A stretch of 39,724 bases of DNA, from the IMG/VR virus record IMGVR_UViG_3300020202_000051. One strand, 5' to 3'. The translations under genes were made by a program, and so were the position numbers. Every line of letters starts with the position of its first letter. Position 1 is the first letter of the stretch. Positions 3,255 through 36,065 of this stretch are shown here, in pieces. Origin of the DNA: a virus. The notes under the pieces were generated by a model. The model saw only the letters and a program-made list of their open reading frames with translations. It was not told where the DNA came from and did not search any database.

Positions 3255-4271
3255 CTAGAACAGAATTTTCATGTCTTTCTTCTCGGGCTCTAAGCACTGC
3301 GCCCGCATTTCATGGTACATCGTGTACATCCACAAGAATCGTTTGAGCGGCATCTGCTGAATCTGCATGATGTTGCCCTCGGGGTAGGCTCCCATCGTGC
3401 CGCCCTCTGAACAGTTGATGTAGAGCCCGGCCACGGTCGACGCCAGCCAGTCAAACCAGATCTTGAAGTTGAAGTAGCTTGCCCAGGTGAGGACCTTGTT
3501 GCCAAAGACGTCGACCGCCCGCATCGCCTCACCCAGGTTCCCGTCGTACTTCGACTTCCACGGGTGAAACTGCTTGGAGTAGGAGAAGCAGAAATCCGAT
3601 CCCACCCAGGCGATGGGGTTGGCTCCTAGAATCGCTTTGGCAATGTAGGTCGCAGCTCCCAGGACATTTCCGCCGGTCGATACGTAAGTATGGAACTGCT
3701 CGATCTTCTCAATCTCAGAGAGAAGCCCCTCATCGGGGATCGGGCAGTTGAAGAAAAGAACCTTGCCCTGCCAGAGCTTGAGGAGATCCGGGTGCGTCCC
3801 GATGAAACAGAGGAGCGTCCGGTCTTTCGTCAGCTCCTTGTACTCGTCTAACGTCTTCTTCCCGCCTTCAGCGATCTCTGGAATCGTGACGGCACCGGCG
3901 TCCAGGCTAACGTAGTAGTCGACCTTGACCCCGTGATCTTCCATGTAATGGAAATTGTGCAGGCAGGAGAGGATGGGGATCCCTTTCGTGTCCTTGAGGT
4001 CTTCGATCGAATTCTTAAGCGAAGGCCCTGAGCCCGCCACGATCACGGGCTGCTTATCGAACTTCCCGTAGAGCTGCCCAATCCCCTGGGCTTTGAAGGA
4101 GCCGAACCTGGCCTTATTGGCTGCGATCTGTTCCAACCACTGCTGCCGCCACGTCGAGACCGTCGTCTTATCGTTGCTGCAGGCCTGGGCGTACATCTCC
4201 TGCTGATTCCTGGGCGGTCCAGGAATCATATTCATGTACTCGAAATCCATCTCTACCGTTTTTAGAACCAT
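3255..4271 (-). CDS. DUF115/MptE-like (Maf-type) putative nonulosonic-acid glycosyltransferase
   Basis: 338 aa. Motifs KQPVIVAGSGPSLKNSIEDLK, HGVKVDYYVSLDAG and STGGNVLGAATYIAKAILGANPIAWVGSDFCF match my memory of the PF01973/Maf core. Located inside the capsid gene block. Confidence 0.7.
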   Translation of the reverse strand: MVLKTVEMDFEYMNMIPGPPRNQQEMYAQACSNDKTTVSTWRQQWLEQIAANKARFGSFKAQGIGQLYGKFDKQPVIVAGSGPSLKNSIEDLKDTKGIPILSCLHNFHYMEDHGVKVDYYVSLDAGAVTIPEIAEGGKKTLDEYKELTKDRTLLCFIGTHPDLLKLWQGKVLFFNCPIPDEGLLSEIEKIEQFHTYVSTGGNVLGAATYIAKAILGANPIAWVGSDFCFSYSKQFHPWKSKYDGNLGEAMRAVDVFGNKVLTWASYFNFKIWFDWLASTVAGLYINCSEGGTMGAYPEGNIMQIQQMPLKRFLWMYTMYHEMRAQCLEPEKKDMKILF

Positions 4272-4382
4272 CGTCGATTGTCCTTGTGAGATTGTGTAGA
4301 GGCGGGCTGCCCTTCTCGCAGGAAGGGCATTTGCTGCGTCAGCTCCCTCAGCACTGAGCGCACCCGCCTCAACATGGTTGGA
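4272..4382 (-). promoter_or_regulatory. Structured intergenic leader upstream of the Maf-like gene (element D)
   Basis: An 8-bp outer stem (4299-4306 with 4363-4370) encloses a 7-bp GC hairpin (4309-4315 with 4322-4328). On the minus strand this is followed by CACAAT-N8-GACAAT-CGACGATG ending at the start codon. Confidence 0.5.
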
Positions 4383-4889: not shown

Positions 4890-5810
4890 TTAGGAAGTTG
4901 TGGCCGAGAGCCGCCCATGAAGCCTGTTATTGGAGCTACCGAAAGCCCCCATCCACAGGATCTTGGCGGTCTTGACGTCCTGATTCACCGGCTTCTGGAA
5001 CGGCTCAAACTTCATGTCACAATCCTTGTGAACGAAAAGGTGGAGATAGTTCTCGTTCAGGAAGAACATATTTGAGGCCGGGCAGTAGCTATCCGGAATA
5101 ACCGGCGCGCCGTTGAACATCAGGTTCTCAAAGCCGCCCTTGGCGGTCTCAGAGTCCTGAAACCGCTGCTGAGGCTGCAAAAGCGCGTAGTACGAGTTGT
5201 ACAGCGTCCGGGTCGTTGCGATCACAGTCGGCTTATCGTTATTGACAGTAGCCGCAGTGAACCGGGTCTGCATGGCAGCGATCGAAAGAACGGTTGTCGT
5301 GCTATCGACCCCGCCCTGCCACCAGCTGTAGGAGCTTTGAGAGATGCCGCCTACGGTCTGGTCGGTGGCCACGATGTCCCGGAGGCCCACGATCGACTTC
5401 GTGTCGCTCCCGTCCGAGTAGATCCCGGTTCCAAGCTTATCGAGCATGGTCTTCTCGGCGATCTTGACCTTGTTTTTCACCAAGCTCAGGACCTGAGAGT
5501 CGCCCGAGTTCTTTCGCTCGTCAGCGCCAGTGATCGAGATATTGGCGTAAAGCTGCTTCCAAGTGTACTCGGCAGCGGTCATGACGTCGTTGTCGGTCGT
5601 GAGCAGCGTGTCGGCGCCCGAATACCAACCGGAGCTCGTCACAGTCGCGTAGTTGAGCGGCACGACGATTCTCTCGCCGCCGTCCAGCTTCTCATACGAC
5701 TTCTTCTTGAGCCGCATCAGGAGCGCATTGGAGTCAAAGATATTGTCGTAAAGCTTCGGAATGAACTTCTTCTGAGTGATCGCACTCAGCTGGTCATACG
5801 TCAGTGGCAT
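4890..5810 (-). CDS. Major capsid protein (HK97-fold type inferred)
   Basis: 306 aa in portal-scaffold-capsid order. N-terminal MPLTYDQLSAITQKKFIPKLYDNIFDSNALLMRLKK and C-terminal FNGAPVIPDSYCP...FLNENYLHLF resemble phage coat proteins, from memory. Confidence 0.75.
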   Translation of the reverse strand: MPLTYDQLSAITQKKFIPKLYDNIFDSNALLMRLKKKSYEKLDGGERIVVPLNYATVTSSGWYSGADTLLTTDNDVMTAAEYTWKQLYANISITGADERKNSGDSQVLSLVKNKVKIAEKTMLDKLGTGIYSDGSDTKSIVGLRDIVATDQTVGGISQSSYSWWQGGVDSTTTVLSIAAMQTRFTAATVNNDKPTVIATTRTLYNSYYALLQPQQRFQDSETAKGGFENLMFNGAPVIPDSYCPASNMFFLNENYLHLFVHKDCDMKFEPFQKPVNQDVKTAKILWMGAFGSSNNRLHGRLSATTS

Positions 5811-6996: not shown

Positions 6997-7105
6997 GGCG
7001 GCTTCCCTGGGAAGGGCACTTCAGACGGTTTTTAGGGGATTGTGTCGAGGTGGGATTGTGGAACTACTCGATGCGGCAATTATAGCACACAAGAATCGTG
7101 GAATC
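6997..7105 (-). promoter_or_regulatory. Late promoter-like element A: extended -10 TGCTATAAT plus tandem CACAAT boxes and a conserved leader
   Basis: Minus strand reads TGCTATAAT (7087..7079), N18, CACAAT, N10, CACAAT, ..GTCTGAAGTGCCCTTCCCAGGGAAGCCGCC ATG. It aligns along about 100 nt with element B. Confidence 0.6.
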
Positions 7106-8971
7106 TCAAGCGGGAACTGCTTGGGGCGCTCCTTTCGCTGCCATCTGGGCCTGGGCTTCAGCCTGCTTCTTCTGCATCACGCGCTCGAGGATGGGCTGCC
7201 AGTTGGGAATGTCTGCAGCCTTCAAGTACTCCTCCTCGTCAAAGACACCGTCCAGGTACATCTGTCGCGCACGGTTGAATTTGACGTCTTTCGCGAAGGG
7301 TAGGCTCGATCCGGTCGAGACTTTCACGTCGAAATCCCCTCTCAGGATGAATTCCCGGGTCTCCAGGGTCTCTGAGTAATGACCCGTCTCAGGATTTTGG
7401 ACGTAATCCCTGACGTAGGCCTTCCTGACAGTCGATCCATCGGGTTGCTGCTCATTCTGGACATGAAATTTGAAGTATTTGGATGCCGCCTGATCGTTTG
7501 TGACGCGGATGATCTGAGGGGTCGTGTAGAACTGAAAGACCCGGTTCTTGTAGAGCTGGCCGACTGACTGAAGGAACGCGTCTAGATTGCGGGATTTCTG
7601 CCGGATCCGGGTCTGAGCTGCCTCCTGGAGGCTGGCAATGGCGCTTGCTGCCGTAATCCCCTCGGGTCTGACGCCTCGAGAGACCTCCTGGGAGCCTGCA
7701 ATCTCGTCGACCGAGTTCCGCATCGTCTCAGCGAGCTGAAGGACGTAGGGCTGAAGCTGAACGCCCTCCTCGCGCCTGACCTCCGTGCCTGGAGTCTTCT
7801 CAACCACAAGCCCGGGTCGGTTGACCAGATTGTCAGTATCGATCCCGGCCGTGTCATCGCAGATCCAAATGGGGTTTCCCATCAAGGTCAGGACGTCGAG
7901 CGCAAAGGAGATGAGCTTGTTATAGATCTTCTGAGGCGATTGGAGCTGCTCGATCTCAGAGATTCCCCAGAACGTGCGCGGATCGATGTAGTTGACGAGT
8001 CTTGCATAGGGGAAAAGCCCGTCATCGAATGGATTCGGCCCATCGTGAAGGAGAACGCCTCCTGCGACACAGATTTTTCGCCCGTTCGGGTATTTCAGGC
8101 GCTTCTCGTACTCGACGACTTCCTGTCCATCGGGGCCGACTGAGCGCTTTTCCTCCTCCTCGACCTCTTCTGACTTAAGATAGACCGTCATCTTGAGCGC
8201 CTGATCGCGCACGGAGGCGTCATAGACGCTCGTTCCTTCGATGATGGTCTTGGTATCGACAGGCGAGCGGAACCGGACGACGTCAACGTCAGTCTTGGAT
8301 CCCTGGACGAGATCGATCAGATCCGCTTTGATGAAAGGTGCTTTCTCGGGATACTCTCTTTTCAGCTTCGAAACCTCAATCGGTTCCGCATAGATCATGA
8401 AGCTTGCGCGTTCGTTACAGTCCCTGGCATCCGGATCTGGAAAGAAGTAGAAGGGATCGAGCGAATCGAGCGTGATCTGCCCCTGGTTGTAGCGTGCCTT
8501 GCCGTCGTATCCGCACTCAGAGAGACCTGTCCCGTAGAAATGCCCGTCAAAGATGATCTCGGCTAACTTGAACGTCCAGTTCTGCCTCTGCCAGTCGGAT
8601 TCAGCGACCTCATCTAGGATTTTCGCAAACTCCATGTCGCTCGGGTCTTGAGCCAGATACTCAAAGCGCTGTCTCGCATCCGTCATGACAGGGACGACGC
8701 TTTGAATCGTCTGAAAGATCTTGTTGATGACCTCGCTATGCCGGTAGGAGGGGCGCTGCTCCTTCCACTGCTTGCCCCGGAACATCCGGTAGTAATCCAT
8801 CCAGTGCTGGTCGTACTGCTGGCGGTAGGATTTCGCCTTGGCAAAGAGCTTGTTGACGAGCGCGATTGCTTTTCGTTCGGCTTCAGACGGCGTATACTCT
8901 GCCGGCTCTGTGGAATTCATTCCCTGGCCTAAGGCCTGGTGCTCTCCAAGGACCGGTATGACCTCAGCCAT
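7106..8971 (-). CDS. Portal protein
   Basis: 621 aa, downstream of TerL and upstream of scaffold and capsid. The N-terminal region YRQQYDQHWMDYYRMFRGKQW is portal-like. Confidence 0.8.
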   Translation of the reverse strand: MAEVIPVLGEHQALGQGMNSTEPAEYTPSEAERKAIALVNKLFAKAKSYRQQYDQHWMDYYRMFRGKQWKEQRPSYRHSEVINKIFQTIQSVVPVMTDARQRFEYLAQDPSDMEFAKILDEVAESDWQRQNWTFKLAEIIFDGHFYGTGLSECGYDGKARYNQGQITLDSLDPFYFFPDPDARDCNERASFMIYAEPIEVSKLKREYPEKAPFIKADLIDLVQGSKTDVDVVRFRSPVDTKTIIEGTSVYDASVRDQALKMTVYLKSEEVEEEEKRSVGPDGQEVVEYEKRLKYPNGRKICVAGGVLLHDGPNPFDDGLFPYARLVNYIDPRTFWGISEIEQLQSPQKIYNKLISFALDVLTLMGNPIWICDDTAGIDTDNLVNRPGLVVEKTPGTEVRREEGVQLQPYVLQLAETMRNSVDEIAGSQEVSRGVRPEGITAASAIASLQEAAQTRIRQKSRNLDAFLQSVGQLYKNRVFQFYTTPQIIRVTNDQAASKYFKFHVQNEQQPDGSTVRKAYVRDYVQNPETGHYSETLETREFILRGDFDVKVSTGSSLPFAKDVKFNRARQMYLDGVFDEEEYLKAADIPNWQPILERVMQKKQAEAQAQMAAKGAPQAVPA

Positions 8972-9323
8972 TCACCTGCTCCTGTACCTCTTTCAGTGCC
9001 TGATCATAGGAGGCTTCGCGTTTCTCGCGTCTCTCTCGTTCATAGTGCTGACGAATGGATTCGGGGCTTTCTGAGCCCACTTCGATCAATCCCCGCTGCC
9101 TTGCGATCTCTTCTCGGTGCCGCTTACTCTTCGTAATGCACCCCAATCCTGGGTTCCATTCGGCGTGCTCGACCTTGGCGCCCACGAAATGGACGCGAGC
9201 GGTGAACTGGCGCTTCGAGGCCTCACCGCAGGAAGGGCACGGCGCCGGATCATCCCGGTCATCGACCCTTCGCGAGAGATCAAACCGCGCTTCACATTTC
9301 GAGCAGGCGTACTCGTAAAGCAG
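8964..9323 (-). CDS. FmdB-like zinc-ribbon protein (start uncertain, possibly CTG at 9323)
   Basis: The frame of ORF 8964..9185 stays open upstream to a TGA at 9336-9338. It encodes LYEYACSKCEARFDLSRRVDDRDDPAPCPSCGEASKRQF (CxxC...CxxC). The only start-like codon in the extension before GTG 9185 is CTG 9323. Confidence 0.5.
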   Translation of the reverse strand: MLYEYACSKCEARFDLSRRVDDRDDPAPCPSCGEASKRQFTARVHFVGAKVEHAEWNPGLGCITKSKRHREEIARQRGLIEVGSESPESIRQHYERERREKREASYDQALKEVQEQVNG

Positions 9324-9418
9324 GGGTAAGCCCTTTCAGGCGTGATTCAGGCTGGAATTGTGGGGATGCGGCATTGTGGGACTGCGAGGCGGAAGCTTAC
9401 AGGGCTAGTATACCATGA
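9324..9418 (-). promoter_or_regulatory. Late promoter-like element C: TGGTATACT plus two CACAAT boxes
   Basis: Minus strand reads TGGTATACT (9416..9408), N28, CACAAT, N10, CACAAT. It begins directly after the TerL stop. Confidence 0.5.
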
Positions 9419-10735
9419 TCAAGACCAGGATTCAGACTGGTTCCTCCGGCTCGGCCTCCGGAGCCGTTCCATCCGGGCGTGAATGTCCTCCTCTACGGGG
9501 GCTGCCTCAGGCGCCCGGGGAGCCTTCTTCGACTGCGCCCGGTAGGTCATGAGCGTTAAATACCTATCACAATCCATCGCATGGTCATTCTGGCCCACAG
9601 GGAGCTGATCTTTTGAGTCCTGATCAGGCTTTAGGTCCTTGGGTTCAGGGTAGTGGTACATCTGCCTTTCATCGGCTGAGTAAGGGCACGCCCCTTTGAA
9701 CTCCTTGTACCTGCGCGTTTTGATCAACTCATAATGAAGATCAATGCCGCGGCGAATGTCATTGTCAGCAGGAGCAGCCGGGAGCCCGGCCCGGCCCATC
9801 TCCTCAATCGACCCGGGCTGGCTAGGGTCGCACCAGAAGGTTTGAATGCCGTACACGCGGTGCTTTTGTCTTGCGATCTCGATCTGATCCATCAGGGTCA
9901 GCCCTGACTTGTAAAACTCTGAGACGCCGTAGTGCCTACCGTCAGGCGTCACAGCTCTCACCTTGAGCGCAAAGGGGTCTGTGAATCCCCAGTCGACCCC
10001 TGCGTAGTAGCGCGTCCCAGGGGGGAGCTCAAAGGGCTCGACCAGGTTCTGGTCATCGTCCCAGCAGTCATAGACGAGTCCGACCATCGAGCTCCACTCT
10101 CCACCAAAGAGCATCTTGAAGCGCCTGGGGTCCATCTGCGCTTCCATCTCGGCCCGGCGCTTGGGGTCATGAAGTGAGTGATAGGGATTCTCCCAGCTTG
10201 CCCCTTGAAGGAGCCTTACTTTGGGGAGCCCGCCTGCAAGCTTGGGTTTGATGTAGTCTTTGTAGAGCCAGTTCAAGGTGTAGGGGGACGTCGTCAGGAG
10301 ACCCTTGGCGCCGATCGCAGCCGCCCGCGCGAGTACGTTCTCCCAGAAGTAAAGTGACGCCAGGCCCGCCTCGTCTAGCCAGTAGGCTTTGACCCTCGGG
10401 ATACCGACGATCGAATTGGGATCCGTTCCGGTGCGCAGGAATACTAAGTCACCGGTATAGAGTTCATAGACCGCTTCGGCTTTCTTGTGATCCCCCGCTC
10501 CTTCCATGTAGTGCAGGAAGTAAGGAAGCATCGACTGCTGCATGATCTTGTAAGTCGGCGCCATGAGAAGGAATGCGGATTTTCCGTCAGATCCCTCATG
10601 GATCTGGCGTTTCATCCAGATAGCACCGCCTTGTGACTTTCCCCACTGGGTTCCAAAGGCTCCGATGGTTAACTCATTGTCGGAGAAAATCAGCTGCTCT
10701 TGTTTATCAGAATGGGGAACAAATGTTTCAGGCAT
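9419..10735 (-). CDS. terL: Terminase large subunit
   Basis: Walker A-like GTQWGKSQGG, Walker B-like YWLDEAG, and nuclease-type acidic motifs GVDWGFTDPFA and HAMDCDRYL. Start taken at ATG 10735 (MPETFVPHSDKQ). The track's GTG 10777 would add an AT-rich, non-coding-looking extension. Confidence 0.85.
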   Translation of the reverse strand: MPETFVPHSDKQEQLIFSDNELTIGAFGTQWGKSQGGAIWMKRQIHEGSDGKSAFLLMAPTYKIMQQSMLPYFLHYMEGAGDHKKAEAVYELYTGDLVFLRTGTDPNSIVGIPRVKAYWLDEAGLASLYFWENVLARAAAIGAKGLLTTSPYTLNWLYKDYIKPKLAGGLPKVRLLQGASWENPYHSLHDPKRRAEMEAQMDPRRFKMLFGGEWSSMVGLVYDCWDDDQNLVEPFELPPGTRYYAGVDWGFTDPFALKVRAVTPDGRHYGVSEFYKSGLTLMDQIEIARQKHRVYGIQTFWCDPSQPGSIEEMGRAGLPAAPADNDIRRGIDLHYELIKTRRYKEFKGACPYSADERQMYHYPEPKDLKPDQDSKDQLPVGQNDHAMDCDRYLTLMTYRAQSKKAPRAPEAAPVEEDIHARMERLRRPSRRNQSESWS

Positions 10736-10900
10736 CAGTTGTTGTTTATAAGTAGAAAAACAAAGGTTTTTTCGCACCCAATTCGCGATTCACCCTGACA
10801 ACTCATCAAAGTGGTAAAGCCGCGGTTCGACCGATAACCGTCCGATCGATTAACCTTAAATAGTGGCGTCACGCTGGAATTAGGCAAAAGGAGTTGTACG

Positions 10901-11026
10901 ATGACCGAATGGATCCTCGGAATTTTTGGGAGCATCATCAGCCGAATACTGTCCGAAATCGTACTGAATCGCCTCAAGGCGTTCTGGCGCTGGGTCACCC
11001 AATCACCATTCACCCCGTCACGCTAA
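10901..11026 (+). CDS. Candidate 41-aa amphipathic peptide, antisense to the flanking operon
   Basis: AAAGGAG sits 7 nt upstream of ATG 10901. Translation is [41 protein letters not shown]. Third-position GC is about 68% by hand count, against about 55% for the overlapping 92-aa minus-strand ORF. Confidence 0.35.
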
Positions 11027-12578
11027 TCATATCACTGGACGCCTCACCTAAGCCCGTGAGCCCCTGCTCAGCGAATTCCACCGCCTGCTGGGCGACGGTA
11101 GCACGGTCGGCGTCGCTTTCTGGCATCCCGTTGATCTTCACAATGGCATTCATGATCCAGGCAGCGAAGTACGCGCGCTTACTGATCACCGTCATGAGCG
11201 TTGCAGGATCATCGCCAAGTTCTTGAAGGACTCTTAGGGCTAGAAGCTTCGCGTTTGACGAATAGACCGCCTGAGTTTCAGCGTCCGAGGGGAGGCCAAA
11301 AACGGCGACGACCGCGTTCATCGCTTCCAGTGTAAAGTAGGTGCGCTTCGTCATGACCGGGAAGGGGAGCGCTCCTCCTCCGCCTCCTCCTCCCGCGGGT
11401 CCGGGGGGGCCTTGGGGTCCGACTGGACCTATTGGACCGGCTGGTCCCTGTGGTCCCACTGGGCCAGGAACGCCTGCTGGGCCAGATGGACCCGGATCGC
11501 CTCGATCTCCTTTGGGTCCAACGGGGCCGGGCAAACCGTCGGCGCCGGGGGGGCCAGCAGGTCCTGGAGGGCCTTCTGGGCCTGGCGGGCCGTCCGCTCC
11601 TTGTGGACCCGGTGGTCCAGGAACAGGATCACCCGCGCCAACGCCCGGAGGACCCTGAATGCCCTGCGGCCCCATCGGACCCACATCACCCTTGTCTCCT
11701 TTCGGCCCTTGAGGGCCAGGAGGCCCCGGAATCCCTTCACCCGTGCCGCCGCCCGAGCCTGCTGGGCCGGGAGGGCCTTGCGGACCTACCGGGCCTTGAG
11801 GTCCCGCGACGCCTTGGATCCCTTGCGGGCCTTGCGCGCCCGGGTCGCCTTTGTCGCCTTTTGGACCTGCTGGTCCAACTGGACCTTGATTGCCTGCTGG
11901 ACCTTCTGGGCCTCGTTCGCCTGGAGGACCCATTTCCCCCTTCGGGCCTTGGGGACCGACGGGACCTTGAGCGCCCTGCAGACCAGGCGGTCCCTGGTCG
12001 CCCTTGGGACCTTGGGGCCCTTGCGGCCCCGGGGATCCAGGCTGTCCAGATAGTCCAGTAGGGCCGATATCACCTTTTGGACCGGGGGGCCCGGGCAGGC
12101 CCTGGGGTCCTTGCAGCCCATCTGCACCTGGTAAACCTTTCGGTCCAGGTAGGCCTTGAGGACCAGGTACTCCAGGCTGACCGGAAGGACCTTGTGCTCC
12201 TGGAGGACCTGGAGGTCCAGCGGGACCAGGAGCGCCTTGCGGCCCCTGAACACCTGCCGGACCAGCGGGTCCAACCGGGCCTGCGGGCCCAACGGGTCCG
12301 ATGGGCCCTTGCGGTCCCGGAGGACCCTGCGGCCCCGGCACTCCTCCCGTCCCACCGCCTGTCGTTTCGTCATCCGGCATCTCCAAAAGCTCCTTGAGCC
12401 ATTTTCTCCCAAACGTCTGCCGCATGAGAATCTCACGCCCCCAGGGATGGGATTCGAGCGGAAGCTCCACCTTGGGTCCAAAGAACTCAGCCGCGTTCGA
12501 GAGACGTTCAATGATCTCGATCGCGCGTTTCCATTTCTTCGACTGCCCGGGCGGCGTGGGTTTATCGGGTTTCGGCAT
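11010..12578 (-). CDS. Collagen-like protein (about 340 aa of G-X-Y triplets) with a duplicated C-terminal domain
   Basis: N-terminal 76 aa, then [17 protein letters not shown]... through roughly 11324..12350 with short interruptions. The C-terminus has two similar units, [25 protein letters not shown] and [25 protein letters not shown]. Confidence 0.9.
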
Positions 12579-12656: not shown

Positions 12657-12701
12657 TTACTTCTTCGATTTCTTGCCGGTCTTCTTAGTCTTCTTAGGCA
12701 T
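12657..12701 (-). CDS. Candidate 14-aa lysine-rich micro-ORF (MPKKTKKTGKKSKK)
   Basis: ATG 12701 is preceded by GAGAAGGAGAAAAACG, a consensus SD with good spacing. TAA stop at 12657-12659. Confidence 0.35.
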   Translation of the reverse strand: MPKKTKKTGKKSKK

Positions 12702-12760
12702 CGTTTTTCTCCTTCTCAGTCTTTTAGGGAATAAGGGATCCGTGCGGGTTGTCTAGTGAA
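12702..12760 (-). promoter_or_regulatory. Diverged copy (element E) of the late leader motif
   Basis: Minus strand reads AGACAACCCGCACGGATCCCTTATTCCCTAAAAGACTGAGAAGGAG. This resembles element A, CACAATCCC..CACAATCCCCTAAAAACCGTCTGAAG. Confidence 0.4.
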
Positions 12761-12829
12761 ATCAGCGGCGGGCCGGCGGGTCGAACGCCGTGGTCCCGTG
12801 AGACCTGCCCCAGTTGGCCATCCCGCCGC

Positions 12830-12953
12830 CTTTCCCCGTGGTCGGGCTTGATTCCGGCTAAGTGCAATTTTGGCGGACCCTAGAAATCCGCCTCCACGTG
12901 GCTTGCACCGTCAACCAGGCTCCTGCGTGTCCATCCACGCCGCACGGGGAAAG
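12830..12953. other. Three nested inverted repeats in the largest intergenic region
   Basis: Complementary pairs are 12830-12840 with 12943-12953 (11 bp), 12863-12868 with 12903-12908 (6 bp), and 12872-12877 with 12887-12892 (6 bp). Confidence 0.5.
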
Positions 12954-15669: not shown

Positions 15670-16220
15670 CCCTTCTCCCCCTCTCCCCGCAGCTGGGCGA
15701 GGGCCTGGCGGGCGCCGTCCAAATATGCCTTATTGGACGCTACTTCTAAGTGCGTCGGGACACATCTTTCCTCGCAACAGTTACCTAGCGTCTCCGCAGC
15801 AGACATTAATCCCTCTTTGGCTTCCTCCAGCGCGTCCGTGGCCAGGGCGAGCTTCTTTTCACCCTCTGCCCACTTGATAGCCCACTCAGATTCTTGCAGC
15901 CACTTGTCCAGTCTAGATGGATGCTCAGCCGCAGCTTTCCATTCGGCTACCTCAGCGCGAAGTACCGCTATCTTTGCCTCTTGTTCCTCCACCAGCGCCA
16001 GCAGACGCGGGATGTCTGAACGCGCATGACTTATAAACTCCAAGAACTCAGTCGAAGGCTCTACACCTGAATCATCTTGAACCAAATGCTCGCCGGTCTC
16101 TGAGTTCCAGAGCTCCCAGTGGTCTAGGTCATCGCCGTGCGCATACGTCCACGGGGGAGGAGGCACCGCATCCACCCGCGCCTGCACCTGGGCGAGCCAG
16201 GCCTTCTCGTCTTCCCTCAT
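15666..16220 (-). CDS. Hypothetical early protein with a coiled coil (184 aa)
   Basis: ATGA overlap with the NeuB-like stop at 16217-16220. Confidence 0.65.
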   Translation of the reverse strand: MREDEKAWLAQVQARVDAVPPPPWTYAHGDDLDHWELWNSETGEHLVQDDSGVEPSTEFLEFISHARSDIPRLLALVEEQEAKIAVLRAEVAEWKAAAEHPSRLDKWLQESEWAIKWAEGEKKLALATDALEEAKEGLMSAAETLGNCCEERCVPTHLEVASNKAYLDGARQALAQLRGEGEKG

Positions 16221-17260
16221 CTCTCACCATCCCAATCCCAGCGGCCAATCGCATGGCCCGCCTGAATGTTCACCCTGACCCGGTGCCCCTCGATGCTCGG
16301 AGCCGCATGAGGCGGAAGCCAGTCGAGTGACGGCACGTGCGAGCGGTAGATGCCAAACGTCTCGCCTTCTTTCAGAACGTCGCCTTTCTTAAGATCGCGT
16401 AGGGCGATCAAGCGCCTGTGATGCAGGAGCCGCATCGAATTGTCGTCGGCGTTCTGTTCAGGCAGATTCCCACGGATCGCTTGCACCATTTCCTTAAATT
16501 CAGACGGGATCAGACTATGCGGCCGGTCAGGCGTCATCACGTCGGGAATTACCGTAAAGTGCTTCTCAATCACACAAGCACCGGTTCCCCATGTCATGGC
16601 CAGGATCTCGGTTGAATGATCCGAAAGCCCTGCGGGCACCCGGAACTCATGAGCGAAACGCGAAAGTTTCCACAACTCTGTCCGCCGTGCTGGATAGGCT
16701 CCTACGCAGTACATGAGAACGACAGGCGTCTCGCCCAGGCGCCTAAGCGCAAGCCGGATCTCCGTCTCGCTATGCCCTGCGGTTGAAAGGAGCACGGGCT
16801 TCCCGTAGCCTTTGAGCTTATCCAAGATTCGGATATGCGCCATCTCGGAGGATGCGACCTTATGGATCCTGACGTAAGGGTTAACCACGTCGTAAAGCTC
16901 GGGCGAGAAGGCCGAGCACAGGAATTCAATCGCATGCTCATCGCAGTGGGCTGAAAGGAGCGGGATCCACTCAGGCGGCATCTCACCCGGCAAGCGCTTT
17001 CTTAAGCTCCCGCGCGCATAAAGTTCCTCAAGGGGGATATCCGAGTCAGGCGCTGTCGCATCCGTGAGACTGAGAACGCCATAAAGCGCCTGCTCATTGA
17101 AGAGCTGAAACTTGACCGCATCTGCTCCCGCCTCTTTCGCTGCCTCAATCGATCTCAGGCAATCGTGAATGTCACGCCAGTTGCTGCCGACCTCGGCAAT
17201 TATGAAGGGCTTACATCCGTCGCCGATCTTAAGATCAGGACCGACTTCAATCGTGCTCAA
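16217..17260 (-). CDS. NeuB/PseI/SpsE-family nonulosonic (sialic-like) acid synthase homologue
   Basis: N-terminal KPFIIAEVGSNWRDIHDCLRSIEAAKEAGADAVKFQLF (NeuB TIM-barrel signature). C-terminal SAF-like LIALRDLKKGDVLKEGETFGIYRS. TTG start at 17260 behind GAGGAGGAGGAG, with a TTGA overlap. Confidence 0.75.
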   Translation of the reverse strand: MSTIEVGPDLKIGDGCKPFIIAEVGSNWRDIHDCLRSIEAAKEAGADAVKFQLFNEQALYGVLSLTDATAPDSDIPLEELYARGSLRKRLPGEMPPEWIPLLSAHCDEHAIEFLCSAFSPELYDVVNPYVRIHKVASSEMAHIRILDKLKGYGKPVLLSTAGHSETEIRLALRRLGETPVVLMYCVGAYPARRTELWKLSRFAHEFRVPAGLSDHSTEILAMTWGTGACVIEKHFTVIPDVMTPDRPHSLIPSEFKEMVQAIRGNLPEQNADDNSMRLLHHRRLIALRDLKKGDVLKEGETFGIYRSHVPSLDWLPPHAAPSIEGHRVRVNIQAGHAIGRWDWDGER

Positions 17261-19984: not shown

Positions 19985-20871
19985 AGTTCCCCCGCTGCAA
20001 TACGTTCGAGTTGACCCCGTTGGTATTCGACCGTCTCCATCGCCTGGGCCTCGACCCGGGTGATGACCCGCTTGGATTTCCATTCGGTGTAAAGCTTCTC
20101 CGCGTCGAGCAGGCAGGCGCCGACGGGATGGCGGCACTTCACGTAGTAGGCATCGGGGTGATGGACGTAGAACCGGATCACCTGGACGGCGTCCTCGGCT
20201 CCCAGGCGGTCGACGAGCTGGCAGAGTTGAGAGTTGACCCGGGAGTTCCGTTTCGGGTCGACCTTCCACCGTGCGAGGTATTCTTCTCGGTAGGCTTCCC
20301 AGACCCCCGAAGATTTCGATTCGGTCTTCGCTGCCGGGTTGAGCCGCGGCTTGTGTCCGCGGATCACCTTCAGTTCCCCGTTAGAGTTAAAGTTAGAGTT
20401 ACCCGTTAAAGTTAAAGGCGGATTGGCAGGTGGTTTGTCAGTGGTCGGACACTTGCTAGCAACTGGCTGGCAAGTGTCTAGCAATGTCTCCTCAGGAATC
20501 GCGAACTTCGCCTCCTCCTTCGGGTGACACTTCTGATGCTTCTTGAATGTGGGCGAATAGAGATACGATTTGCCCTCGTGGATCAGTCCACGAATTCGTC
20601 CGGTGTCAATTAGCTCCTGGATGAGCTCTGCGACCCGTTTCGCGGTCAGGTCGTCGTCATATGGAAAGATGTTCCGCTTGATCAGACGCGGATCGCCGTC
20701 GCAGATTCCCTGCCTGTCCATGAAACACCACAGACCCACGTACAGGAGCCTGGCCTCCCGGCTGAGACCCGCCAGCCCAACGTCCTCAAAGAACTCCGGC
20801 TTGATGTACCTGATGCGCGCCACGATGCCCCCCTGATTCCCAACGCCGCTCCGCCCGAACCCGTTCAACAA
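19981..20871 (-). CDS. Putative replication initiation/organiser protein
   Basis: N-terminal ARIRYIKPEFFEDVGLAGLSREARLLYVGLWCFMDRQG is a motif common in prophage replication proteins, from memory. The start could instead be GTG 20823. Confidence 0.5.
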   Translation of the reverse strand: MLNGFGRSGVGNQGGIVARIRYIKPEFFEDVGLAGLSREARLLYVGLWCFMDRQGICDGDPRLIKRNIFPYDDDLTAKRVAELIQELIDTGRIRGLIHEGKSYLYSPTFKKHQKCHPKEEAKFAIPEETLLDTCQPVASKCPTTDKPPANPPLTLTGNSNFNSNGELKVIRGHKPRLNPAAKTESKSSGVWEAYREEYLARWKVDPKRNSRVNSQLCQLVDRLGAEDAVQVIRFYVHHPDAYYVKCRHPVGACLLDAEKLYTEWKSKRVITRVEAQAMETVEYQRGQLERIAAGEL

Positions 20872-21892: not shown

Positions 21893-23017
21893 TCACCGCT
21901 TGGCCCCCCCGGTGATCGACACCACGACGTCCTGCAGGCCAGCTCCAAAGCCGATCCGTTTGCCCTTCTCAACCAAGTGCGAAATGTCTTTCTTCGTGTA
22001 CCGCTCAGTCACAAGCACCGTCGAATGACCCAGCATGTCCTTGATCTCAGATTTGGAGTACCCGGCGCGCTCGGCATTCGTCGCGAACGTCCGCCTGAGG
22101 TCATGGATCGTTACCCGGGTGACCTTGGCTTCGGTGATCGCCCGCCTGTGGACATCCTTGAACGTGTCGTAAGGGATGAATCCCCCTTCAGGCTTTGACG
22201 CGATGTAGTCCTGAGGCCGGGTCCATTTCGTCTCACTCCGGAATGCATCAATCGCATCCCTGAGCCTTGGGAAGAGGGGCACCAGGGTCTCCCCTCCTTC
22301 GCCCTTCCCCTTTTGGCGTTCCACGACCTCACCCAAGGCTCGGTCCTCAAGGCGCCTGACCTGGACGACGGACGCCTCCCAGTCGATATCCTGGAACTGA
22401 AGCGCATTGGCCGAGCAGATCCGGGCGCCTGTCCAAAGCAGGAGCTGGCCCAGCATCCAGTAGTGAATCCCCTCTGCCCGGAGGGCCTCAAGATACCTCC
22501 CCTGCTCCTCCCAGCTCAGAACCTGCTTGGACTTGATCGGCTCGGGCTTGAGCGGAATTCGGCTGATCGGATTGACCAAGACCTTGCCTTCCATGAAGGC
22601 GTCCTGAAAGAGCTTGTGCATGAGCGCCCGGTACCGATTCCGGGTCGCGACCGTTTTCTTCATCTCGTATTGAAGCTCATCCAATGCCTCGAGAACCTCA
22701 GCAGTCGAGATGCTCTGCATGGGCCTCACCCCAAACCTGGGGAGCCAGAAGTTCTTGAGCCTCGAATCGTCATTCTTGACCGTCCCAAGCGGCATCTCGG
22801 CATAGCGCTTCCTGATCCACCGCTTGGCAAAGTCAATGAGCAGGATCTCATCCAGGGGAGCGGCAAGTCCGGCCTTCACCCTCTGGCGGTCAATCTGAAC
22901 CTTGCCTTCAAACTCAATTGCGTCTTGTTTCCGGGTAAATGAGCGGGTTTTGACCTTCCCCATGTCCCGCCATTGTACCATCCAGGGGGCTTTCCGCCCT
23001 TCCCTGTACTGAGGCAT
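21893..23017 (-). CDS. int: Tyrosine integrase
   Basis: TGARICS (Arg), HDLRRTFAT (His-x-x-Arg) and LGHSTVLVTERYTK (His...Tyr). Adjacent to the attP-like tRNA fragment. Confidence 0.9.
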   Translation of the reverse strand: MPQYREGRKAPWMVQWRDMGKVKTRSFTRKQDAIEFEGKVQIDRQRVKAGLAAPLDEILLIDFAKRWIRKRYAEMPLGTVKNDDSRLKNFWLPRFGVRPMQSISTAEVLEALDELQYEMKKTVATRNRYRALMHKLFQDAFMEGKVLVNPISRIPLKPEPIKSKQVLSWEEQGRYLEALRAEGIHYWMLGQLLLWTGARICSANALQFQDIDWEASVVQVRRLEDRALGEVVERQKGKGEGGETLVPLFPRLRDAIDAFRSETKWTRPQDYIASKPEGGFIPYDTFKDVHRRAITEAKVTRVTIHDLRRTFATNAERAGYSKSEIKDMLGHSTVLVTERYTKKDISHLVEKGKRIGFGAGLQDVVVSITGGAKR

Positions 23018-25647: not shown

Positions 25648-25866
25648 TCAGCTTGCCTGCCGTTGCTCAGCGATTCGGTTTTCGATTCGCTCCATCGTTT
25701 CGCGCAGGACAACTATGCTGGGGTACCTCATGCGCACCGTCTTACCGTTCAGGAATCGCCATAGCGTGCTAGGGGCAATCCCCAGTTCATTCGCTAACTC
25801 GGATCCAGTTACCCGCCAGCGGATCATCCAGTCTTGGATCCACTTTTGGGATGCACGGCTCTTCAT
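25648..25866 (-). CDS. Cro-like HTH regulator, first gene of the leftward early operon
   Basis: TGSELANELGIAPSTLWRFLNGK. ATG 25866 lies 6 nt downstream of a TATAAC -10. Confidence 0.65.
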   Translation of the reverse strand: MKSRASQKWIQDWMIRWRVTGSELANELGIAPSTLWRFLNGKTVRMRYPSIVVLRETMERIENRIAEQRQAS

Positions 25867-25917
25867 GATCAGGTTATAGATCCAGTTTGCAAAAACTGCA
25901 ACTAAAAATTGCAAAAA
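25867..25917. promoter_or_regulatory. Divergent switch region with a palindromic operator
   Basis: TTGCA-AAAAC-TGCAA at 25887-25901, and a second TTGCA at 25909. The minus-strand promoter reads TTGCAG (25901..25896), 17 nt, TATAAC (25878..25873). Confidence 0.6.
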
Positions 25918-26427
25918 ATGTCTAAGGATACTCTTTCGATTTTAAACCGAAATTTTGGCCGGATGATCCAGAAGCTGAACTGGGATCAGAAAAGGGCCGC
26001 GGCAGCAATGGGCCTAAAGCATTATACTTTGAGCCGCTATCTCGCCGGCAAAACTGACCCAGGAATCAAGGGCCTGGAGAAGATCGCCAAGGGCTTCGGG
26101 ATCACCGTCTCGGAACTGCTCGACCCAGAAAAGCCACCCTCCGCCCGATTCGCCCCGATTAGCGCAATGGACGCGCTCGTAGCGATTGAAGAGCACGTCC
26201 GTGCGACGTCGGATCATCCTGTCCCATCAACTGAAACGATTGATGAAATTCTCGCCAGCTTGAAGGAACTTCATGCGCGGCTTGATCACGCGCCGGAGCT
26301 GCCCCCGCGGCTTGACCTGGCGACGATTCCGTTGCCTCTTCTCTGGGCCCTTGGCGCCATTGACCGCCAGGGGCTGGTCACCATCACCAAGATGCTCGAA
26401 GCGCTTTTGAAGCGTCGCATGTTGTAG
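25918..26427 (+). CDS. CI-like repressor candidate (XRE HTH plus C-terminal domain)
   Basis: ATG at 25918. QKRAAAAMGLKHYTLSRYLAGKTDPGIKGLEKIAKGFGITVSELL. No S24 peptidase motif seen. Confidence 0.7.
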   Translation: MSKDTLSILNRNFGRMIQKLNWDQKRAAAAMGLKHYTLSRYLAGKTDPGIKGLEKIAKGFGITVSELLDPEKPPSARFAPISAMDALVAIEEHVRATSDHPVPSTETIDEILASLKELHARLDHAPELPPRLDLATIPLPLLWALGAIDRQGLVTITKMLEALLKRRML

Positions 26428-27371: not shown

Positions 27372-27570
27372 CGTCATCGTTCACGACGGGCTTCCGCTTC
27401 ACGGGCTCGGGCTTGAAGGTAAACCGCCCCGATCTCACCAGCTGCTGAGGCGCAGGCTTATCATAGGGGATCGGGCTCGGCCGCTGGCCGAAGAGGAGGA
27501 GCCCCAAGGCCAGGAGCGCGATCGAAAGGAGCACTCCGATCACGATCCCGAGCCAGAGCACGCGCTTCAC
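27337..27570 (-). CDS. Single-pass membrane protein (77 aa), last gene of the sugar cassette
   Basis: N-terminal VLWLGIVIGVLLSIALLALGLLLF. ATGA-type overlap with the GNAT gene. Confidence 0.55.
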   Translation of the reverse strand: MKRVLWLGIVIGVLLSIALLALGLLLFGQRPSPIPYDKPAPQQLVRSGRFTFKPEPVKRKPVVNDDVKAYLAEKEQR

Positions 27571-28181
27571 CCTACGGCTCTAGAGTAAGCAGGCTGCCCC
27601 GCCTGATTGAACCGCTGCCAGTCTTCCATCCGAAGCGGGATCTTGTTCGGGTAAGCAGCGTGCGAGAACCACTCATCTCTGAGCAGGCTGTAAAGCTGCG
27701 CATCGAGATACTCGCCTTCGCGGTAGTAAAATGCGCGCCTTGAGCCCTCGAGCTTAAACCCCAGGTCCTGAAAGATCTTCTGGGCGGCATTGCCCTCAAA
27801 CGATTCACCCCAGATGCAGTTGAGCCCGAGCGTATAGAAGCCGTGGCTAACGAGCGTCTGAAGGGCTGCCCTCCCGTGCCCATGCTTACGCTCATTGGGT
27901 GCAATGTAGAGGGAGAATTCAGCCCTGTGGTTCCAGGGGTCGATCGACGTCAGTCCACAGACGCCGACAGGCTTTCCTTCGGCCTTGATGATGTACATCT
28001 TGATCGACGGATCCTGCGCCTGGCGCTCATACCATTTCTCCTGGGCGTAATCCGAAATGAGATCGTTCTGCCTGCAGGTGCGCCAGGTCGCGTAATCGTT
28101 CCGCCATTCCTTGATCAGATGCATGAAATGGCGATCGAGCGGCCCGAGACTGACGTTCTTCCCGTAGCCGTAGGCGATCAC
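27567..28181 (-). CDS. GNAT N-acetyltransferase (PseH/RimL-like)
   Basis: LIKEWRNDYATWR..., GVCGLTSIDPWNHRAEFSLYIAPNERKHGHGRAALQ and NAAQKIFQDLGFKLEG fit the GNAT fold and PseH-like N-terminus. Confidence 0.7.
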   Translation of the reverse strand: MIAYGYGKNVSLGPLDRHFMHLIKEWRNDYATWRTCRQNDLISDYAQEKWYERQAQDPSIKMYIIKAEGKPVGVCGLTSIDPWNHRAEFSLYIAPNERKHGHGRAALQTLVSHGFYTLGLNCIWGESFEGNAAQKIFQDLGFKLEGSRRAFYYREGEYLDAQLYSLLRDEWFSHAAYPNKIPLRMEDWQRFNQAGQPAYSRAVG

Positions 28182-30980: not shown

Positions 30981-31071
30981 GGCGGGATCGTCCGATCGTC
31001 AGGGGTTCCATGGTTCATCGTGGTACTACTCCCATAAGCTAAACTGATCAGATCTATAAACTCAATCAGTT
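30981..31071 (-). promoter_or_regulatory. Element F: late-leader motif copy in front of the sugar cassette
   Basis: Minus strand reads GAGTAGTACCACGAT, N16, GACGATCGGACGATCCCGCC, GTG. A small hairpin (GATCAGT-AAA-ACTGATT) sits at the amidase stop. Confidence 0.5.
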
Positions 31072-34237: not shown

Positions 34238-34340
34238 GCGACGACTCCCGGAATGGGCACTTCAGACTGTCAGATGGGAATCGTCGGGTGGAATCGTGGG
34301 ACTACTTTGAACTGCCGTAAGTATAGCACCCGGGCTTGGG
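34238..34340 (-). promoter_or_regulatory. Late promoter-like element B: TGCTATACT plus CACGAT/GACGAT boxes and a conserved leader
   Basis: Minus strand reads TGCTATACT (34318..34310), N21, CACGAT, N7, GACGAT, ..GTCTGAAGTGCCCATTCCGGGAGTCGTCGC GTG. It aligns with element A. Confidence 0.6.
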
Positions 34341-36065
34341 CTAGGGTCCAGAGGATTTGCGCTGCCTCCTCTGGATGGCGCCTTTCAGACCCTTGTCCTC
34401 CTCGTCAGCAGCGACCTTCCTGGTACCGCCAGCCATACCCTCGGCTTCAGGGGCGCCAGCGCGATAGGACTTCAGTACAGCCTGTCCTTCAGCGGTATTG
34501 AGCGCCCGGAACGCTCGTCCGATCGTGGCATCCGACAGGTCTTTCGCGCCTCCAGCGAGCTTGCTGACCATTTCAGTCGATACGCGACCAGTCCGAATCG
34601 CAAACTTGAGCGCGGCGGGACTGGTCAAAGCACCCAGGGCAATAGCCCCCTTCGGGCCAGCTACAAGGAAACCCGCTCCGAATCCACCAAGCATCCTGGC
34701 GACGGATTTACCCGTATTGTCAGCCGGAAGCCATTGGGCGTCCTTGAACGTCCGTGCAGCCGAAAGATTCTCTGCCTTCTGCTGAATGGGGTATCCAGTG
34801 ATATCGCCCATCTTCTTTAGCATCAGTTGATTGCGCTGATTCGAACCGGATCCAGCCGCATAGAGCGCCGAATCACTTTTTCCAGGGGAGAGGAGATTCT
34901 TATTTAGCCTGGATTCAAGCTCATGCAGCGCGGCCAGCTGGTTATTGGCCTTCCCGACTTCAGGTGCAATGCTATTGATCTGCTTCCTGGCGATGGCTCC
35001 CGCGGCCTTGGCGGCCCTGGCTGACTGCGGTGCCGCCTGAAAGATCTGGCCGTCCTTCAGGTAAGCTGATCGAGCTCGGTCCTGAAGAAGCTCCTTAATG
35101 TCGTGCAAATCTTTGGCGCTGACGAGGTATTCAGTCTTCTCAACCCCTGGGAAGGGGGAACTTTGGGCATTGGCCCCTCGCTTGATCTCCTGGATAAGCT
35201 CGTCAATCTGACCTATTGCCCCACGGTCATAGTTCGGATTGAGTGCTCCTTTGGCCTTCTCCAGTTGGGCCAAAACGGGCTGAATGTCGATATTACGCTC
35301 AGGACCCACCGCCTGGAGGCTTTTTCCAACCTGATCGGACAGCTCCTTTCGTTTCGCCCGAATGGCTGTCTGAAGATCTTCCCTGATCTTGTCGGCCGCA
35401 GCAGGAAGCTCCCCACCGCTATCTTTGATCAGCTTCTCGACTTCGCCGGTCCGCCTGGCATAAGTCGCAATGTCCTTCTCGGGTAGCCCGGTAAGTGTAG
35501 CTGCCGTCTTCCTGCCGAGCTTACTGGCCAATCCGCTAACGACTTCCGCACCCTTCTGCAGTCCTTGCCCCGCCTTGGCGAACGTGGTCGATCCCTTGGC
35601 GAGCTTTCCCGCTAGACCTGCAGCGGGAATGATATTGGAAAGATCGGCTGTCGCTCCGATGCCGACCGCAGCGGCATCCTCATAGGTCGGCCCATAACCA
35701 GCCAGAGCAGCGGCCTTGAAAGGGAGTGGAAGCGCCTGAAATGGGATCTTTTCAGTCGAAACACCGGCCTTTTGAGCGATCTGACGTTCCGTCGGTGCCC
35801 GCTTCGGGTCCTCTCCAAACTGGCCCTTTAGTGCGCGGCCAGCAGCGACCAGATCGTTTGATTTCTGAAATTCTCCAATGGCAGCCCGAACTGGAGCCCC
35901 AGTGTAGGAGTCGATCTTGTTTGCCACGCCAACCGCAGCGTCAACGGCCTTTTGTCCGAAGGTCCGAGCGTCCTTGGGAAACGCAGGAGCAGCCTGATAG
36001 TCCATCCATGGGCCGCTTTCATCAGACTTTCCCTTCTTCTGATAGTCTTCCCATGGGCCAGCCAT
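34341..36065 (-). CDS. Internal virion/ejection protein candidate (about 574 aa)
   Basis: Ala/Gly/Lys-rich and largely helical. Repeated PW(E/M)DYQ at the N-terminus. ATG at 36065, 2 nt after the upstream stop. Confidence 0.6.
   Translation of the reverse strand: MAGPWEDYQKKGKSDESGPWMDYQAAPAFPKDARTFGQKAVDAAVGVANKIDSYTGAPVRAAIGEFQKSNDLVAAGRALKGQFGEDPKRAPTERQIAQKAGVSTEKIPFQALPLPFKAAALAGYGPTYEDAAAVGIGATADLSNIIPAAGLAGKLAKGSTTFAKAGQGLQKGAEVVSGLASKLGRKTAATLTGLPEKDIATYARRTGEVEKLIKDSGGELPAAADKIREDLQTAIRAKRKELSDQVGKSLQAVGPERNIDIQPVLAQLEKAKGALNPNYDRGAIGQIDELIQEIKRGANAQSSPFPGVEKTEYLVSAKDLHDIKELLQDRARSAYLKDGQIFQAAPQSARAAKAAGAIARKQINSIAPEVGKANNQLAALHELESRLNKNLLSPGKSDSALYAAGSGSNQRNQLMLKKMGDITGYPIQQKAENLSAARTFKDAQWLPADNTGKSVARMLGGFGAGFLVAGPKGAIALGALTSPAALKFAIRTGRVSTEMVSKLAGGAKDLSDATIGRAFRALNTAEGQAVLKSYRAGAPEAEGMAGGTRKVAADEEDKGLKGAIQRRQRKSSGP

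Follow-up and report, generated by a model that had tools for sequence, protein, structure and literature searches.

The subject here is a set of short, tandem, oriented repeats among the late genes of an uncultured phage, known from a DNA of 39,724 nucleotides, IMG/VR virus record IMGVR_UViG_3300020202_000051 (the window, by which the whole stretch is meant). On its minus strand, where nearly all of its genes lie, five late intergenic regions carry clusters of a hexamer, or box, with the consensus SACRAT, and in three of them, typified by positions 6997 to 7105 (module A), the boxes stand downstream of an extended -10 promoter-like element. Comparison of sequences indicates that the box finding is real for all five (modules A, B, C, D and F) and that it generalises to a whole uncultured phage family, within which the layout is kept while the box sequences differ; that combination suggests a fast-evolving form of late-gene control that has not been described. 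What would read such boxes, and on which nucleic acid? The reading that we favour, though it falls a little short of an even chance, is that an internal late promoter is joined to a transcribed, G-poor box array that is read sequence-specifically and sometimes doubles as an element opposing the ribosome-binding site (anti-RBS).

Clustered boxes in late intergenic regions

Two or more SACRAT in a 30-nt span of the gene strand were counted as a cluster. By that measure there are exactly five in the window, all late and intergenic, where shuffled sequences give 0.74, and the composite pattern TATAMT-N15-30-SACRAT-N5-12-SACRAT occurs three times as against none in 100 shuffles. The five modules hold 13 boxes in 509 nt (25.5/kb) and the 39.2 kb outside them 47 (1.2/kb), a 21-fold enrichment (p = 7e-13); other intergenic DNA has 1.4/kb. 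A preliminary description of this DNA had entertained that the hexamers might prove just as dense throughout coding sequence. Their spread is far from even, and clustering together with enrichment makes the boxes a real and non-random feature of the region downstream of the promoters, as that description had held. Single boxes with one mismatch show no genome-wide enrichment, so it is the clustering, not the single box, that carries the signal. Anti-box clusters, such as an antisense RNA would supply, are absent from the window except for one pair inside the capsid gene, and an antisense RNA with anti-boxes was rejected on that account. Nor is there a box cluster in the immunity region (25713-26013), with its CI-like gene on the plus strand and its Cro-like open reading frame (ORF). 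The repeats there, TTTTTGCAA three times and ACTGGATC three to four times, are different sequences from the late boxes, which disposes of the boxes as CI operators.

The layouts first reported for three of the modules are exact. Features of the window given from here on are on the minus strand unless a plus sign is shown. Behind the portal gene, A reads TGCTATAAT-N18-CACAAT-N10-CACAAT: a -35-like hexamer, TTGAGA (7104..7109), which at a spacing of 19 bp is the best match to a -35, shares bases with the portal stop codon, a third box, CACGAT (7095-7100), lies within the promoter spacer, and the extended -10 TGCTATAAT (7079..7087), to which CTTGTGTGCTATAMT in the relative L091 is homologous, precedes AGTAGT (7063-7068), box 1 (7055-7060) and box 2 (7039-7044). 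The box tract (7039..7068) is the lowest-G 40-nt stretch on the whole gene strand. It is followed by a 13-mer, GTCTGAAGTGCCC (7014-7026), which is common to module B, and, within 6997..7026, by a small hairpin (CCCT/AGGG or CTTCC/GGAAG) that overlaps the Shine-Dalgarno sequence (SD) before ATG 6996. Module B, behind the gene for a 581-aa virion protein, is TGCTATACT-N21-CACGAT-N7-GACGAT. Its parts are a -35-like TGGACC (34345..34350) 19 bp upstream of the -10, the extended -10 TGCTATACT (34320..34328), a box tract (34276..34306) of AGTAGT (34301-34306), box 1 CACGAT (34293-34298) and box 2 GACGAT (34280-34285), the latter with its flank forming CGACGATTCCC (34276-34286), then GTCTGAAGTGCCC (34255-34267) at a distance from the boxes identical to that in A, and finally GGGAGTCGTCG (34239-34249), which spans the SD and spacer of the GTG-34237 C1q-domain tail protein gene. 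Module C is TGGTATACT-N28-CACAAT-N10-CACAAT, its extended -10 TGGTATACT (9407..9415) directly after the stop codon of the terminase large-subunit gene and its boxes (9373-9378 and 9357-9362; tract 9357..9378) upstream of a Zn_ribbon_8 gene.

Six related modules had been proposed, and five of them stand, D and F being true box clusters. In D, which has no promoter, four adjoining boxes, CACAAT-ct-CACAAG-GACAAT-c-GACGAT (4270..4296), run into the MptE/Maf-like gene, the last overlapping its ATG (4271). Immediately 5′ of them, after the capsid and 162-aa genes, is a long GC-rich predicted stem-loop (4299..4370; region dG -47, z -3.2) that is terminator- or stabiliser-like, without a T-run. Module F (30987..31030), between the amidase gene and a GTG-30980 ORF with the sugar-nucleotide genes, has AGTAGT (31025-31030), CACGAT (31017-31022) and GACGAT twice (30995-31000 and 30987-30992), with at best a weak -10 candidate, TAGCTT. 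The AGTAGT ahead of the first box in A, B and F is there as described, with a two-base gap. The sixth candidate, E (12702..12760), has to be set aside, as it has no boxes. What it has instead is a conserved Lys-rich micro-ORF of 14 codons, MPKKTKKTGKKSKK (12657-12701), with a strong SD, AAGGAG, kept as MAKAKAKTKKKTKK at the same position in the relatives L090 and L092.

The promoters and their spacing

On the gene strand TGNTATAMT occurs three times, only at A, B and C, and in each the TG lies one base upstream of a TAnnnT hexamer ahead of genes, as in extended -10 promoters. That such TGn elements precede late genes is borne out, and is strengthened by conservation in relatives, at least 10 lineages of which keep a near-consensus TGnTAnnnT at the site after the portal gene, usually with a -35-like hexamer 19 bp upstream. 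The accompanying statement that no -35 element is evident was, however, inaccurate, given TTGAGA in A and TGGACC in B and the recurrence of their geometry: when the post-portal promoters are aligned on the -10, the best -35 match falls mostly at a spacer of exactly 19 bp, being TTGACG in L091 and L020, TTGACT in L030, TTGATT in L070 and TAGACG in L007, L008, L090 and L092. A generic scan found neither canonical promoters with 16-18-bp spacers nor intrinsic terminators near the modules. The promoter assignment, with its unusual but conserved 19-bp geometry, is well supported by these alignments, and the TGn may compensate for the length of the spacer.

The spacer itself has features of note. 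In the window, L007, L008, L090, L092, L091 and L030 it usually contains a dyad or hairpin, rich in GC, in which the lineages differ by compensatory changes (CGCC/GGCG as against GCGCG/CGCGC). This could belong to the portal transcript, as a 3′ hairpin that overlaps the promoter, or be bound by a protein in the manner of a MerR-style operator. MerR-type promoters have spacers of 19-20 bp. By analogy the spacing here could indicate MerR-style activation, the likeness being an over-long 19-bp spacer kept across lineages and often holding a GC-rich dyad, and the difference that no MerR-family activator has been identified for this phage. As a separate observation, a fourth perfect TGCTATAAT is found on the opposite strand (29653-29661, +), inside a gene. 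No boxes follow it there, and it could be an antisense promoter or a product of chance.

One architecture, changing boxes

The relatives compared were the closest portal relatives with their flanks (L006-L008 and L090-L092) and 80 metagenome loci. In portal relatives from metagenomes the modules sit behind the terminase and portal genes and ahead of the MptE-like gene, and their layout is a TTGACN-like -35, a 19-bp spacer, TGnTATAAT, tandem direct boxes in a C-rich, G-poor tract, a small hairpin, an SD and the start codon. A search for the motif in related phages, which the preliminary description had recommended, thus recovers the extended -10 and the tandem boxes but not the box sequence, which differs by lineage. 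In the window the box is CCACAAT or, more generally, SACRAT; in L006 it is AGCCAAT; in L091, ACTGAT, with four copies after the terminase gene and three after the portal gene; and in L007, L008, L090, L092, L010 and L043/L080, AACTTA(C/A)A or AAATTA(C/A). More distant members have AACTTAT, AGACTTCC, ATTTAAATTCCCA, CTTCACCGTAC, ATTCTA, TTTTTCAT and others, among which CATCACCC recurs with a period of 12 in about five copies. Window module A and L091 share CTTGTGTGCTATAMT yet carry different boxes behind it.

How is it to be known that these are boxes at all, when their sequence is not constant? Of 35 post-portal spacers with a length of 45 nt or more, 16 have an exact 7-mer repeated within 26 nt, as against about 10% of shuffle trials per spacer. 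Further, one genome has one box at sites 2.4 kb apart while the inter-box spacers differ (L006, L091 and L007), and across L007, L008, L090 and L092 the boxes are conserved where the spacers have diverged. The D type of module also recurs, with a large hairpin and then boxes that continue into the start codon (AACTTAAAATG in L092, AAAATTAAAATG in L090). Promoter-less boxes, as in module D and after the terminase gene in L007 and L080, lie directly after a stop codon or in the spacer between SD and ATG. Elsewhere in IMG/VR the window's own box code gave one unrelated chance match.

Where the boxes would act

Boxes that follow a promoter can be read on duplex DNA or in the transcript, and four kinds of evidence point to the transcript: strand-specific composition, variable spacing, the placing of boxes at start codons and, in some modules, complementarity between box and RBS. 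On the gene strand the boxes of 12 genomes contain 98 C to 29 G, and the diverged spacers between them 126 C to 29 G (p = 1e-15); in the early intergenic regions of the window, unlike the late box tracts, G equals or exceeds C. Boxes are spaced 6-22 nt from one another without helical phasing. The first of them may be as near to the -10 as about 1 nt or as far from it as 45 nt. The last is placed more tightly, mostly 33-53 nt ahead of the start codon, or 0-6 nt ahead of it in modules of the D and F type. In predicted folds the boxes are unpaired. The leaders of A, B and C have folding z-scores of about 0 and so no significant overall structure, and a stable leader RNA structure was dropped from consideration; a short GC hairpin does lie just 5′ of the SD in each lineage, with sequences that are different. 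In module B, CGACGATTCCC is complementary to GGGAGTCGTCG over 11 bp (dG -23.5; 0/200 shuffles; rank 3 of 316 non-cognate RBS), in the L006 post-portal module AGCCAATCC is complementary to GGATTGGC, and such complementarity is strong in WIN_B, L006_pp, L091_pT and L092_pT, with ranks of 0-3 of 316. The preliminary description had left open, as a fallback, binding sites either for a phage activator or for an RNA-level regulator; from the features of the sequence just given, the RNA-level branch is the better supported.

A proposed expression cassette

On the favoured reading, the module would be an internal late-gene expression cassette. Its well-supported first step would have a host sigma-70-type promoter restart or boost transcription where the demand for protein rises, namely behind the terminase and portal genes and ahead of the tail-fibre gene. 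Composition and position suggest a second step, in which two to four direct boxes, in the transcribed leader or, where there is no promoter, in intercistronic RNA, would work as single-stranded RNA within an unstructured C-rich, G-poor tract that stops some 35-50 nt short of the start codon, or right at it, ahead of the hairpin and SD. In the third step, which we infer, the boxes would be a recognition array for a sequence-specific factor whose specificity differs between phage lineages, and its binding would set translation of the downstream cistron and possibly RNA stability or access for Rho. In 'closed' modules such as B, where a box pairs with SD and spacer, box occupancy would free the RBS by a logic like that of Mu Com, while in 'open' modules such as A and C the boxes would avoid pairing with the RBS. 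The reader might be a lineage-specific early-region product, the family-wide Zn-ribbon protein, or a host-specific RNA or protein. That all this amounts to a class of control not previously described, with a dedicated factor reading tandem single-stranded RNA boxes, its specificity switching between close relatives as immunity does and some boxes being anti-RBS, we hold to be possible but doubtful.

The search for a reader gave suggestions and rejections. The Zn-ribbon protein is the most suggestive conserved candidate on sequence and position, since its gene is directly behind the post-terminase boxes, with a likely start at CTG 9323 in the window and at ATT or ATC in L007, L008 and L010. Against the PDB it gave no more than generic zinc-finger matches and against PHROG a label-only match, and a word-indexed search for homologues returned the query itself only. 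An ECF-like mini-sigma of 145-161 aa, with sigma-2-like and sigma-4-like parts and preceded by a small Cys-rich zinc-finger gene, is encoded by L006 (5327-5812), L007 (4524-4961), L008 (about 3698-4159) and L092 (3883-4320). It is absent from the window, L090 and L091, the latter two carrying an HTH_8 gene instead, and it was rejected as box factor as there is no window homologue and L090, without it, has the boxes of L092. A helix-turn-helix (HTH) protein of about 144 aa, encoded upstream of NeuB, belongs to a family-wide TerS-like (DUF5681) family, whose N-terminal domain does not follow box type across distant AACTTAC genomes, and was likewise rejected. The small acidic post-portal protein is not nucleic-acid-binding-like, and resemblances noticed by eye to the 16S rRNA tail, DnaA box, IHF, boxA and RNase E sites did not hold from one box type to the next and were given up.

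Several of the results weigh against the cassette as proposed, or against its parts. No box-reading factor was found among the phage proteins searched. The window's early and middle genes have zero homologues in the close relatives, though genes so unique would suit a lineage-specific regulator. The AACTTAC box is common to phages with unrelated early regions and very different G+C, which is awkward for a phage-encoded lineage-specific factor, and no early gene is common to all genomes with that type of box, the AT-rich L011 included. Neither the Zn-ribbon nor the TerS-like protein covaries clearly with box type. Modules A and C and most others lack box:RBS pairing, A, C and several others ranking worse than average, so that this sub-mechanism is not general. 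Finally, orientation, intergenic location and lineage specificity would be just as well accounted for by a protein that binds DNA and recognises asymmetric sites in one orientation.

Weighing the alternatives

It is to such a DNA binder that one of the rival explanations appeals. The boxes, downstream of internal promoters and between cistrons, would be asymmetric duplex sites of the stoperator kind for a phage repressor or other HTH protein, which would keep polymerase, in the lysogen or at an early stage of infection, from initiating, escaping or elongating into the late operons. The phage is temperate, with an integrase, a Xis-like HTH_17 and a CI-like HTH_3 protein, its internal promoters would need silencing, and the early region, where the regulator would be encoded, is unique to the window; inverted box copies near some starts (B and L006_pp) could be extra sites, and the boxes are intergenic, in one orientation and lineage-specific, as are L5-type stoperators (PMC9283540). 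However, the immunity region, with repeats of its own, has no box, there are just five clusters and all are late, the spacing of 6-22 nt is not helically phased, the box:RBS complementarity extends through the SD, and the strand-specific depletion of G in boxes and diverged spacers alike would go unexplained on duplex DNA. We judge this explanation unlikely on balance, while regarding an orientation-dependent binder of the stoperator kind as a serious rival. Might the boxes instead need no reader at all? They could be an unstructured ribosome standby site or translational enhancer, like the T7 gene-10 epsilon or tobacco mosaic virus (TMV) omega, or a rut-like tract for loading Rho, with the repeats due to local duplication and the similarity within a genome to common descent. 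The extreme excess of C over G without structure, the position of modules before the most highly expressed genes, the failure to find a reading factor and the YCC in which every box type ends, or which it precedes, fit such a cis leader, as does the commonest box, AACTTA(C/A/T), in its resemblance to the T7 epsilon sequence, TTAACTTTA. What it accommodates poorly is that exact boxes of 6-13 nt are kept at separate loci of one genome when the spacers differ, that in L007, L008, L090 and L092 it is the boxes and not the spacers that are conserved, and that behind a homologous promoter close relatives differ in their boxes. A general host factor would have no cause to require GCCAAT of one phage and ACTGAT of another. 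It too seems rather improbable.

Two further explanations concern transcription proper. The boxes might be upstream (-35-like or activator) elements of a second, phage-specific promoter read by an extracytoplasmic function (ECF)-like sigma or an activator, with its -10 and start region in a conserved downstream block, which is GTCTGAAGTGCCC in A and B and CAACCT in L006. The mini-sigma encoded by L006, L007, L008 and L092, the equal distance from box to 13-mer in A and B and the match of AACTT to the ECF -35 core and of TCTGAAG to the -10 region of sigmaE-dependent degP all speak for it, but the window, L090 and L091 have modules without such a sigma, L090 without it and L092 with it share a box, ECF geometry would need 2-4 nt more between the elements, the AACTTAC clade has no conserved -10 downstream of its boxes, and the last box touches the start codon in D-type modules, so that we think it very unlikely. 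Less likely still is the model with which the preliminary description began, in which -10-like boxes of the initially transcribed region would cause a sigma-dependent pause and a Q-type antiterminator would load there. The boxes do follow a promoter in A, B and C, SACRAT in the window does keep the A2 and T6 of a -10 hexamer, and the Q21 binding element, which adjoins a pause element, likewise consists of two 8-bp subsites in direct repeat (bioRxiv 10.1101/651190). The A2 and T6 are, however, lost in the boxes of relatives (GCCAAT, ACTGAT, CATCACCC and AAATTCCC), the promoter-to-box distance is not fixed (about 1 to 45 nt), D, F and relatives have boxes without a promoter, and there are 3-5 modules per genome and not one pR′-like site beside a Q gene. 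No intrinsic terminator-like site follows A, B or C, the genome having fewer such sites than shuffles, and Pfam scans of about 50 window ORFs found no sigma or Q-family protein (PF03589 / PF06530). The comparative data thus largely refute this model, which is hardly tenable now.

What would follow if the boxes are indeed read in RNA by a lineage-specific factor? They would then offer compact, portable and orthogonal cis/trans pairs for post-transcriptional control, with the four or more box types behind one conserved promoter as natural specificity variants. Whichever way they are read, the modules are a comparative case of regulatory turnover in which the promoter is kept and the leader code replaced. 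They add to the few known cases, stoperators and start-associated sequences (SAS), in which many operons of a phage are marked by one short oriented motif, and their architecture predicts where late transcription units start in these uncultured genomes.

Genome setting

Its gene content identifies the window as the genome of a temperate, podophage-like phage with a portal of the SU10/P22 type. The genome is probably complete and circularly permuted: in relatives the match to a 437-aa ORF (38366-39679) is the initial two-thirds of a 629-636-aa protein, which would be accounted for by a gene split by the contig end. Around the modules are the genes for the terminase large subunit (9419-10777), the Zn_ribbon_8 protein (8964-9323, between the terminase and portal genes, with an 8-nt overlap with the portal start), the P22/SU10-type portal (7106-8971), a 96-aa protein behind module A (start ATG 6996), a scaffold-like protein, the major head protein (4890-5810) and, inside the head-gene block, the MptE/Maf-like protein (3255-4271). 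Elsewhere are those for a collagen-repeat fibre (11010-12578), the C1q-domain tail protein (32873-34237, start GTG 34237), the amidase (31072-31521), the integrase (21893-23017, with its Xis-like HTH_17 partner) and the CI-like protein (25909-26427, +), in which HTH_3 is the sole domain found. Genes of a nonulosonic-acid pathway (NeuB, a class-III aminotransferase, a GNAT protein and a CMP-sugar cytidylyltransferase) are also present, at 16217-17260, 27567-28181, 28369-29604 and 30056-30781 together with the MptE/Maf-like transferase at 3255-4271, and the retention of NeuB and MptE-like genes throughout the phage family suggests virion glycosylation.

Among 50,697 deposited phages there was no close DNA or protein relative, the best portal identity being 25%, and two scans of 185,579 reference genomes found no prophage relative. 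Hundreds of portal homologues, of 50-68% identity, do occur on metagenome contigs of 35-40 kb, from groundwater, freshwater, soil crust and marine sources, in a family without a cultured member. Two other stretches of the window deserve mention in their own right. At about 20380-20445 there are iteron-like direct repeats, AACT(T/C)TAAC, in a G-poor stretch, TTTAACTTTAACGGGTAACTCTAACTTTAACTCTAACGGGG, possibly a replication origin. At about 12780-12860 a GC-rich structured stretch ends in a tRNA-like T-arm and acceptor strand (CGGCG TTCGACC CGCCG GCCCGCC G), maybe an attP core or a tRNA fragment, though 9 kb from the integrase gene; neither ARAGORN nor Rfam gave a match to it. A tRNA search of the window found none, and the whole window against Rfam 15 gave no match at the gathering score or at E <= 1.

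Comparison with known systems

Mu Com, lambda nut/rut, T7 epsilon and TMV omega are useful here as functional analogies and not as memberships. What the modules would have in common with lambda N/nut and the tR1 rut is a small hairpin behind single-stranded elements of the transcript, rich in C and poor in G, together with a specificity that differs between related phages. Small hairpins do come after the boxes and module C has GCCUGAAAGGGC, which might be nut-type features, and module C (CACAATTCCAGCCTGAA...GCCTGAAAGGGC) may resemble nutR, whose sequence is CACATTCCAGCCCTGAAAAAGGGC. The differences are that the repeats here are tandem instead of a single boxA and that neither an arginine-rich N-like protein, nor downstream terminators, nor a matching Rfam family was found. 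Control of mom by Com in phage Mu is a possible parallel, as it involves a single-stranded RNA site just 5′ of a structure that hides an RBS, and a small zinc-binding protein encoded adjacent. In B, L006_pp, L091_pT and L092_pT a box would pair with the SD region. Com, however, has one site and no tandem array, most modules here have no box:RBS helix, and the Zn-ribbon candidate is unrelated to Com.

The lambdoid Q/qut systems share with the modules a late promoter followed by short direct repeats, and cis sites that are lineage-specific; they differ from them in that here no Q gene was found among the ORFs scanned, resemblance to a -10 is not kept, geometry is variable, a terminator is missing and the modules are several, some promoter-less. 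In Cluster A mycobacteriophages a genome has more than 20 stoperators, each a single 13-bp site that shares its consensus with the early-promoter operator; they are read on duplex DNA by a monomeric two-domain repressor (L5 gp71) and thought to silence transcription into lytic genes (PMC9283540). Like the boxes they are asymmetric, lineage-specific, intergenic and oriented with transcription in a temperate phage, and the same orientation holds in the relatives here. In contrast, the boxes are short, in five clusters of two to four, with none at the immunity region and with a strand-specific composition pointing to RNA.

The nearest precedent, by analogy, is SAS, an oriented repeat tied to start codons whose reader is likewise unassigned. 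In Cluster K mycobacteriophages SAS and its extended form (ESAS) are built on a single 13-mer with an SD core, GGGATAGGAGCCC, found in the non-structural half of the genome at 3-7 bp from a start (PMC3203893). Like the boxes, they are short asymmetric repeats scattered through a phage genome, almost always in one orientation, intergenic, upstream of starts and conserved across related phages, with an upstream structured element sometimes attached. Placement is where they part: only D and F abut a start, while A, B and C end 33-42 nt upstream. The boxes, moreover, come in tandem, are poor in G and have no SD; they are found in the structural half, at 0-50 nt from a start, and often stand behind a promoter; and, unlike SAS, their sequence turns over between close relatives.

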